A stretch of 64,000 nt of DNA from an uncultured Gemmatimonadota bacterium (GTDB taxonomy: Bacteria > JAAXHH01). The translations under genes were made by a program, and so were the position numbers. The stretch covers positions 1,184,001 to 1,248,000 of the forward strand of contig OX638340.1 of NCBI GenBank assembly GCA_951812955.1, given 5' to 3'. Below, piece by piece: positions 34,162-35,097 of the stretch; positions within the stretch are counted from its first letter, which is position 1; each line of letters starts with the position of its first letter. The notes below the pieces were generated by a model. The model was not told where the DNA came from. It searched no databases and worked only from the letters and a program-made list of their open reading frames with translations.

Positions 34162-34259
34162 GGGAGTGTATGGGTTGCTGGTGCGCCTCACGGACTTCAA
34201 ATCCGATGGCGGGCCCTAAACAGGTCCGTGGTGGGTTCGATTCCCACACGCTCCCCCCA
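34162..34259 (+). tRNA. selC: tRNA-Sec (selC), anticodon UCA
   Basis: 8-bp acceptor stem gggagtgt/acgctccc with one G-U. Anticodon stem cgga/tccg with loop cTTCAaa gives anticodon UCA. Long variable arm: stem gggcc/ggtcc with a 7-nt loop. T-arm gtggg-ttcgatt-cccac. 3' c-CCA is encoded. About 98 nt; D-arm pairing not resolved by eye. Confidence 0.75.
34236..34259. repeat. Left copy of a 23-24-nt direct repeat (the tRNA-Sec 3' end); att-like
   Basis: ttcgattcccacacgctcccccca recurs at 35075-35097 with a single-C deletion. The two copies bracket the low-GC insert. Confidence 0.7.
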
Positions 34260-34477
34260 GTGTATTTCCCATACCAATTAGTACGTAATCTAACTTCATA
34301 ATATCATCGTTCCTGATTTTATAAAGGAGAACTGCAGGCATATAATACACCGAGTGTGGTTATACCTCTGTCGTGGGGGTCGTGCAATATCCGGTCGCCA
34401 AACCCAACAGATTTCCGGCTATTCAATTTACAAACTGCAGTTTATTTGCCGTGGACTTATCTGATTAAGGAATTACG

Positions 34478-34990
34478 TCAATGGGGATGATTCTCAGGAC
34501 GTATCTTTAACCATTCGATTTTCTTTAATACACCAATTACCGCTTCTGTGTAGATTTCCTTCGTCGGCCAACTCTGTTTTTTGTTAATATATGCTTCTAT
34601 AAATGGTCGGTTAGTTTTAAGAAAGTGGTAAATAGACTCTTTCATATCAAAGCTTAATTCGGACGAATGATGAGATAAAGCGATATCAAGTTGCAACAAC
34701 ATGTGTTGGTAACTTCTATATCGCGCTTCATCCAGTTCACTACCACTTATTGGTCTGCGTTTACCGATTTCCCCGACTTCCGTAGACCTTATGGTAAATG
34801 ATTCCGGATTCAATATCTTAGAAATTTGGGTTACTATGATACCCCGAATTTGTTTTGCCTGTTGAGAGCGTCTATATCGACGGGAAAAAAATGTTTTTGT
34901 TGCCAAAACTGCTGCGACAATTATACCTATCAATATCCCATTCTGTATTTCTGTTAAACTGTTGTAATTCATAGATATACAATCTCCCAC
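34478..34990 (-). CDS. Hypothetical N-terminally membrane-anchored protein (170 aa) inside the tRNA-Sec-associated low-GC insert
   Basis: One predicted TM helix (ILIGIIVAAVLATKTFF). About 38% GC. No recognisable family. Confidence 0.45.
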   Translation of the reverse strand: MGDCISMNYNSLTEIQNGILIGIIVAAVLATKTFFSRRYRRSQQAKQIRGIIVTQISKILNPESFTIRSTEVGEIGKRRPISGSELDEARYRSYQHMLLQLDIALSHHSSELSFDMKESIYHFLKTNRPFIEAYINKKQSWPTKEIYTEAVIGVLKKIEWLKIRPENHPH

Positions 34991-35074
34991 ACTGGTAATT
35001 CGGCCTTTACTCTCTCGATTAGTTCACGGACCTGGGACTGAAAGTAGCTTATATTAAAAGTTACAATCAGGTTT

Positions 35075-35097
35075 TTCGATTCCCACACGCTCCCCCA
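35075..35097. repeat. Right copy of the tRNA-Sec 3'-end direct repeat (attR-like)
   Basis: ttcgattcccacacgctccccca is identical to 34236-34259 apart from one missing C. Confidence 0.7.

Follow-up and report, generated by a model that had tools for sequence, protein, structure and literature searches.

A probable integrase-made insertion of 815 bp at the tRNA-Sec gene of an uncultured Gemmatimonadota bacterium

In an uncultured bacterium of a Gemmatimonadota/Latescibacterota-like lineage, the gene for selenocysteine tRNA (tRNA-Sec) is followed by a short stretch of low-GC DNA, and the 3' end of the tRNA gene recurs on the far side of that stretch. We asked how this DNA came to lie there, what it carries, and whether it is a complete mobile element or what is left of one. 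The analysis covers the whole 64-kb stretch shown in part above (hereafter the window), together with related loci from other genomes. The argument turns on the following features, given in window coordinates.

32085..34088, + strand: selB, selenocysteine-specific elongation factor, 667 aa (Pfam GTP_EFTU, Beta-barrel_SelB and SelB-wing_3); native left flank
34162..34259, + strand: tRNA-Sec, anticodon UCA, 98 nt with the CCA end encoded (ARAGORN, Rfam RF01852, identity with the closest relative, L001)
34236..34259, + strand: putative attL core, the tRNA-Sec 3' end from T-loop to CCA (22-nt exact repeat at 34236-34257)
34260..35074, no strand: inserted DNA, 815 bp (the blocks that blastn aligns with L001 stop at 34259 and restart at 35075)
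34478..34990, − strand: cargo gene, 170 aa from GTG at 34990 or 164 aa from ATG at 34972 (open reading frame list; HMMER homologues)
35075..35097, + strand: putative attR, a duplicate of the tRNA-Sec 3' end, 22 nt exact and then one C fewer (alignment A1; blastn against L001)
35116..35724, + strand: COX3-like gene, 202 aa (Pfam COX3, 2.6e-24); native right flank (tblastn and spacing)

A duplicated tRNA-Sec 3' end and an empty site in relatives

The only tRNA that ARAGORN calls in the whole 64-kb window is a tRNA-SeC (tca) at 34162-34259 on the + strand, and Rfam family RF01852 matches the same gene at 70.6 bits (gathering score, 47); together the two programs confirm the UCA-anticodon tRNA-Sec, and its boundaries, that had been proposed from the letters alone. 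The gene begins after a gap of 73 nt from selB and is intact, with 98 of its 98 nt the same as in the empty-site copy of L001. Its 3' end, from the first T-loop base to the encoded CCA, is present twice. The 22-mer TTCGATTCCCACACGCTCCCCC has two exact occurrences, at 34236-34257 and 35075-35096, and no match to it arose in 100 shuffles that preserved dinucleotide composition, even when 3 mismatches were tolerated. Past the 22-mer, the tRNA copy reads CCA and the distal copy reads A, a C-run one C shorter. This single C may reflect a real mutation, a difference already present in the original attP or a homopolymer sequencing error. The original prediction had placed a copy of the tRNA end, minus one C, at 35075-35097, and both the exact 22 nt and the shortened C-run are seen there.

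The DNA between the two copies is 815 bp long with a GC content of 0.382, as compared with 0.593 for the window, 0.595 for selB and 0.583 for cox3, in agreement with the ~815 bp at ~38% GC first estimated. At third codon positions the difference is larger, with a GC3 of 0.33 in the open reading frame of the insert versus 0.75-0.79 in the flanking genes. That reading frame, 34478-34990 on the − strand, is the only sizeable one in the insert, and it holds no Pfam integrase domain. Pfam likewise finds no transposase in the insert; terminal inverted repeats are absent, and internal arm-type or terminal repeats amount to short pairs at chance level. When the tRNA-Sec-linked integrase of a relative (L007, described below) was used as a tblastn query, it found no match in the window, an interval of 64 kb out of a genome of ~3.8 Mb, and a relaxed search of the insert returned noise. 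Both searches bear out the earlier statement that the bracketed DNA encodes no integrase.

A scan for SelB across species-representative genomes yielded 23 related loci, in metagenome-assembled genomes (MAGs) labelled Gemmatimonadota or "Latescibacterota", several of them from sponges or corals. A tRNA-Sec identical or near-identical to that of the window lies downstream of selB in 22 of the 23, so the order of the two genes is kept in 22 related loci. In the closest relative, L001 (SelB 94% identical), 17 nt separate the end of tRNA-Sec (12143) from the start of the cox3-like gene (12161). The site is also empty in L003, where the cox3-like gene follows 29 nt past tRNA-Sec, and in L018, the deepest branch (SelB 60% identity), where it follows after 17 nt; L013, with 114 nt after tRNA-Sec, was grouped with the empty sites. 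The arrangement predicted for an empty site, tRNA-Sec directly followed by the cox3-like gene, is therefore found in L001, L003 and L018.

Between the window and L001, blastn aligns three colinear blocks. The first, 33001-34259 (L001 10917-12143), stops at the last base of tRNA-Sec; the second, 35075-35723 (L001 12120-12768), starts where the repeat copy starts; the third joins 38190-40000 to L001 12884-14695. In alignment A1, AAAAGGAATAACCC and the TTG start of cox3, which follow the distal repeat in the window, are the sequence directly after the tRNA in L001 and L003, and what follows the putative attR is thus the native sequence that adjoins the tRNA-Sec 3' end in empty-site genomes. Searches of the 22 relatives with DNA and with protein queries found none of the 815 bp; a segment shared unchanged among relatives was the outcome named beforehand as pointing to ancestry instead of insertion. 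The insert and its gene are also absent from 80 related and unrelated selB loci searched by blastn and tblastn. Because the site is empty in L001, L003 and L018 and the 815 bp are missing from every relative, these comparisons indicate that the segment at the tRNA-Sec 3' end is a recent, lineage-specific insertion. That it is recent follows from the two putative att copies, which are essentially undecayed, and from a composition that has not drifted toward that of the host.

The COX3-like gene on the right flank stands alone, with neither cox1 nor cox2 beside it, and scores below all NCBIfam equivalog cut-offs; its place directly after tRNA-Sec is kept in most relatives. Beyond it lies a second, independent insertion relative to L001 (35724-38189; 2466 bp; GC 0.46), which replaces 115 bp of intergenic DNA between cox3 and the convergent next gene, has no flanking repeat and has no copy in any relative. 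It contains two genes.

35883-36566, − strand: DUF4276 protein (Pfam; weak PADLOC match to HEC-01B)
36718-37863, − strand: AAA_21/AAA_15 ATPase (Pfam; PADLOC HEC-01A, 1.8e-49)

By these matches, the ATPase and the DUF4276 protein are probably a candidate defence pair, of the type that combines a split OLD/PARIS-like ATPase with a Toprim-like protein. We considered whether the low-GC stretches on either side of cox3 form one island and rejected this reading: cox3 is native, conserved and of host-like GC, and the second stretch has breakpoints of its own and no tRNA repeat. Further stretches of the window with a GC content below 0.48 (average 0.59) lie at 28101-29700, 22001-22500 and 1201-1600.

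A membrane-anchored cargo protein and its homologues

The database version of the cargo protein takes the ATG at 34972 as its start and is 164 aa long. A word-indexed protein search with it returned the self-match only, and HMMER against 1.8 billion representatives then set aside the possibility of an ORFan by returning 17 further, distant homologues (E from 2e-34 to 8e-4). Apart from three shorter fragments, the majority have 130-170 aa and can be aligned across most of the protein. Alignment of the family (A2) shows a hydrophobic N-terminal helix at residues ~12-30, the sole hydrophobic helix of the protein, as well as a basic juxtamembrane stretch (RRxxQxxxIR), an STxPGxxG segment and conserved LDxAR, SSDLSY and KIKWLKL motifs. 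By the positive-inside rule, the remainder of the protein would be cytoplasmic. With A2 as input, AlphaFold2 modelled the protein with a pLDDT of 91 and a pTM of 0.78, as a long helix (residues 4-54), a short hairpin and three further helices packed as a bundle. Because the gene has homologues that align in A2 and the model is confident, we conclude that it is real and that its predicted product is a folded, membrane-anchored helical-bundle protein.

The description of the insert as carrying a single gene, for a membrane-anchored protein of 170 aa, stands, with one reading frame, an N-terminal transmembrane helix and homologues. The suggestion that this protein be sought among abortive-infection and toxin families found no echo, as it matches no family in Pfam, PADLOC or NCBIfam. 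A sequence profile search of the PDB gave nothing below E = 0.8, and fold searches with the model gave generic helical-bundle matches only. There is a weak, partial match to a phage holin family (phrog_1350; E = 1.5e-3, 19.6 bits) over residues 12-79, which include the transmembrane helix, and a viral fold search gave nothing below E = 0.26; we have not classed the protein as a holin.

Homologues of the cargo gene are solo genes in variable neighbourhoods. One (L081) adjoins a Type ISP restriction-modification enzyme, two (L082 and L084) adjoin transposases, the second of these with N6_N4_Mtase and HsdM-type methylase genes several kb off, and another (L085) has an AAA_21 ATPase 9 kb off; no tRNA lies near the homologues in L081-L085. 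Such surroundings fit an accessory gene of mobile DNA or defence islands, but the support is anecdotal. The variable regions around the homologues abound in insertion sequences and restriction-modification genes, and for this reason we guess, with low confidence, that the cargo gene encodes a small membrane-associated protein with an accessory or defence-island role; the assignment is doubtful.

Some of the same islands also carry another family of small proteins (~135-150 aa) with an N-terminal CxxC, an NDNRQL(K/R)xSY(K/R)YTQIGL motif, a C-terminal transmembrane helix and no Pfam match. Two copies (L081 4971-5429 and 5529-5933) adjoin the closest homologue of the cargo gene, beside the Type ISP gene, and a third, 35% identical (1e-23), lies in the tRNA-Sec-linked island of L005 (16509-16964, − strand). 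This distribution suggests that the islands may share a pool of small membrane proteins.

What lies between tRNA-Sec and cox3 across the clade

What other relatives carry in the same place bears on the kind of enzyme that could have made the insertion. Between tRNA-Sec and the cox3-like gene, the related loci hold the following.

Empty: L001, L003, L018 (L013: 114 nt)
Insert of 660-850 bp with a PDC-sensor-like lipoprotein gene: L004, L006, L008, L009
About 2.85 kb with a hybrid histidine kinase/response regulator: L010, L011, L012, L014, L021, L063
N6_N4 methylase, MTaX1-HNH protein and Mutator-family transposase: L005
AbiEi and AbiEii: L022
GmrSD_C-like protein: L017
P4-type tyrosine integrase of 405 aa (Arm-DNA-bind_3, Phage_int_M, Phage_integrase), 76 nt past tRNA-Sec: L007, 12199-13416

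By its contents, the slot is a hotspot of gene gain in this Gemmatimonadota/Latescibacterota-like clade. The islets of L005, L006/L008, L017 and L022 share with that of the window their slot, small size and variable content; they differ from it in their genes, which are of the PDC-sensor lipoprotein, restriction-modification, AbiE and GmrSD-like kinds. Among the islets compared, only that of the window has a full-length, undecayed 22-nt repeat. In L006 (12126-12974) and L008 (12137-12982), the insert of ~820 bp ends distally, right before cox3, in a 12-13-nt copy of the tRNA terminus, ACGCTCCCCCCA[A], and degenerate similarity continues further 5' of this copy. This insert, which is unrelated in sequence to the 815 bp of the window, has the look of an earlier event of the same type, after which its base composition moved toward that of the host. 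The lipoprotein-like product encoded in L004, L006, L008 and L009 has a PDC sensor domain resembling those of methyl-accepting chemotaxis proteins (MCP-like).

The integrase gene of L007 is followed by ~2 kb of lower-GC DNA, and no distal tRNA repeat lies within 10 kb. Because this P4-type integrase adjoins tRNA-Sec, the class of enzyme that the structure in the window calls for targets the same tRNA-Sec within the clade.

Origin of the islet and comparison with known systems

We regard it as probable that the insertion was made at tRNA-Sec by an integrase and that the islet is now an integrase-less remnant of a larger element, resembling a cis-mobilizable element (CIME). A mobile element whose attP matched the T-loop-to-CCA end of tRNA-Sec would have recombined there by means of a tyrosine integrase of the P4 type. 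The exchange would have rebuilt an intact tRNA-Sec at attL and put a copy of the tRNA 3' end on the far side as attR, before the native cox3-like gene. The larger element would then have lost its interior, leaving an 815-bp, att-flanked remnant that kept one foreign gene, for the N-terminally membrane-anchored, cytoplasmic helical-bundle protein. The action of an integrase is deduced from the structure of the islet and from the integrase of L007: the T-loop-to-CCA portion is duplicated while tRNA-Sec is left intact, which is the pattern of an attP x attB exchange. The original reading of the repeat as an attL/attR pair from site-specific integration gains from the empty site, the breakpoints at 34259 and 35075, the intact tRNA and the L007 integrase alike. 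We class the islet as an integrase-less remnant and not as an autonomous element because no integrase lies inside it. Neither the relatives nor the phage, viral and metagenome collections yielded a larger parent whose ends match, which counts against decay; on grounds of parsimony, a deletion remnant is most probable.

A different possibility is that nothing was lost, and that the islet is a minimal non-autonomous element, complete as att sites and one gene, which would be inserted and excised in trans by a tRNA-Sec-specific integrase encoded on a co-resident element or at another place in the genome, as an integrase-dependent counterpart of a MITE (miniature inverted-repeat transposable element). 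The putative att copies are essentially intact (22 of 22 nt), the undrifted composition implies a recent event whose sites could still work, the clade has a tRNA-Sec-linked P4-type integrase in L007, and a similarly small insert (~820 bp) occupies the same site in L006 and L008; because 64 kb of a ~3.8-Mb genome were inspected, there is also room for an integrase acting from elsewhere. However, no such integrase was found in the 64-kb window, the insert of L006 and L008 is unrelated by sequence, no second unit or close relative of the gene was found at any tRNA, and the homologues in L081-L085 lie away from tRNAs. Neither the window nor the relatives have another copy of the insert or its gene. 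Scans of metagenome and viral contigs, at the protein level with the A3 profile and at the DNA level with patterns from the insert ends, came back empty, and a phage DNA collection contained no match to the insert. Because no second copy appeared anywhere searched, a one-off remnant is favoured over a multicopy mini-element, and we judge the latter unlikely. A bolder version, in which the 815-bp unit is a complete and still mobile mini-island served in trans by a P4-type integrase, with the cargo as a new single-gene effector of phage defence or abortive infection, would fit the homologues, whose neighbours include Type ISP and other restriction-modification genes as well as insertion sequences, and also the HEC-01-like islet 0.7 kb away; we consider it decidedly improbable.

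Had the segment been ancestral, deletion between the 22-nt repeats could have restored an empty-looking site in the relatives, and the end states would be the same. Yet a GC3 of 0.33 against ~0.77 in a genome of 59% GC speaks against long residence, the relatives show no trace of the sequence, and the site is empty or differently occupied in 22 of 22 of them, including L018, so that many independent, precise losses would be needed; this explanation is in effect already refuted. An artefact of assembly or binning, with a foreign low-GC fragment joined through a shared tRNA-like 22-mer, is suggested by the evident origin of the sequence in a metagenome-assembled genome (the relatives are all MAGs), by the record of the cargo protein on just one 3.8-Mb contig, and by the one-C homopolymer difference, which is typical of long-read error. 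A chimera would not, however, duplicate a segment precisely while keeping tRNA-Sec intact and native, colinear sequence to the left and right, and the same architecture recurs with other cargo in the independent assemblies of relatives, which makes an artefact very improbable. A transposase could account for an insert that is small and has no integrase, the repeat being the target-site duplication of an IS- or MITE-like insertion, but a 22-24-nt duplication falling exactly on the tRNA from T-loop to CCA is the pattern of an integrase and not a short target-site duplication. Terminal inverted repeats and a transposase are absent and the insert is single-copy, and we find this last explanation scarcely credible.

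As an integrase-type insertion at tRNA-Sec outside the Proteobacteria, the islet is valuable for being clean and fully bounded, and in sister genomes the site is found empty, filled with other DNA or next to an integrase gene. The hotspot slot belongs to an uncultured clade that is partly sponge- and coral-associated, and the islet draws attention to membrane-anchored helical-bundle proteins of a small, uncharacterised family, which travel with mobile and defence DNA. It reveals no new mechanism.

Elements integrated at selC include LEE, PAI-I536, SHI-2, SPI-3, the retronphage phiR73 and GIselC17584/1, and P4-type integrases are the usual agents at selC islands. In E. coli, Shigella and Salmonella, selC is a classical attachment site for islands and phages, and the islands of E. 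coli end in a 24-bp selC direct repeat (PMC6174562). The original prediction had called tRNA-Sec an uncommon integration target; this does not hold up, given its classical role in the Enterobacteriaceae (PMC6174562) and the hotspot in the present clade. Like the islet in the window, the selC islands of the Enterobacteriaceae lie directly 3' of an intact tRNA-Sec, end in a repeat of the tRNA 3' end (24 bp there, 22-24 nt here) and deviate in GC from their host. By contrast, they span 3.4-70 kb and usually carry an integrase and many cargo genes, whereas the islet has 815 bp, one gene and no integrase, shares no sequence similarity with them and sits in an uncultured Gemmatimonadota/Latescibacterota-like lineage. 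CIMEs, to which we compare its present form, were defined in Firmicutes. They are flanked by attL and attR and are without recombinase or transfer genes (PMC5704250). The islet is like them in that a putative att copy bounds it on either side, at the target gene's 3' end, and in that it lacks integration and transfer genes. CIMEs originate by decay of an ICE or IME and are mobilised in cis by accretion; for the islet, for which no parent element was found, such a descent and mobilisation would be conjectural. It is unusual only in its size (815 bp, one gene) and its host lineage, and is otherwise of a known kind.
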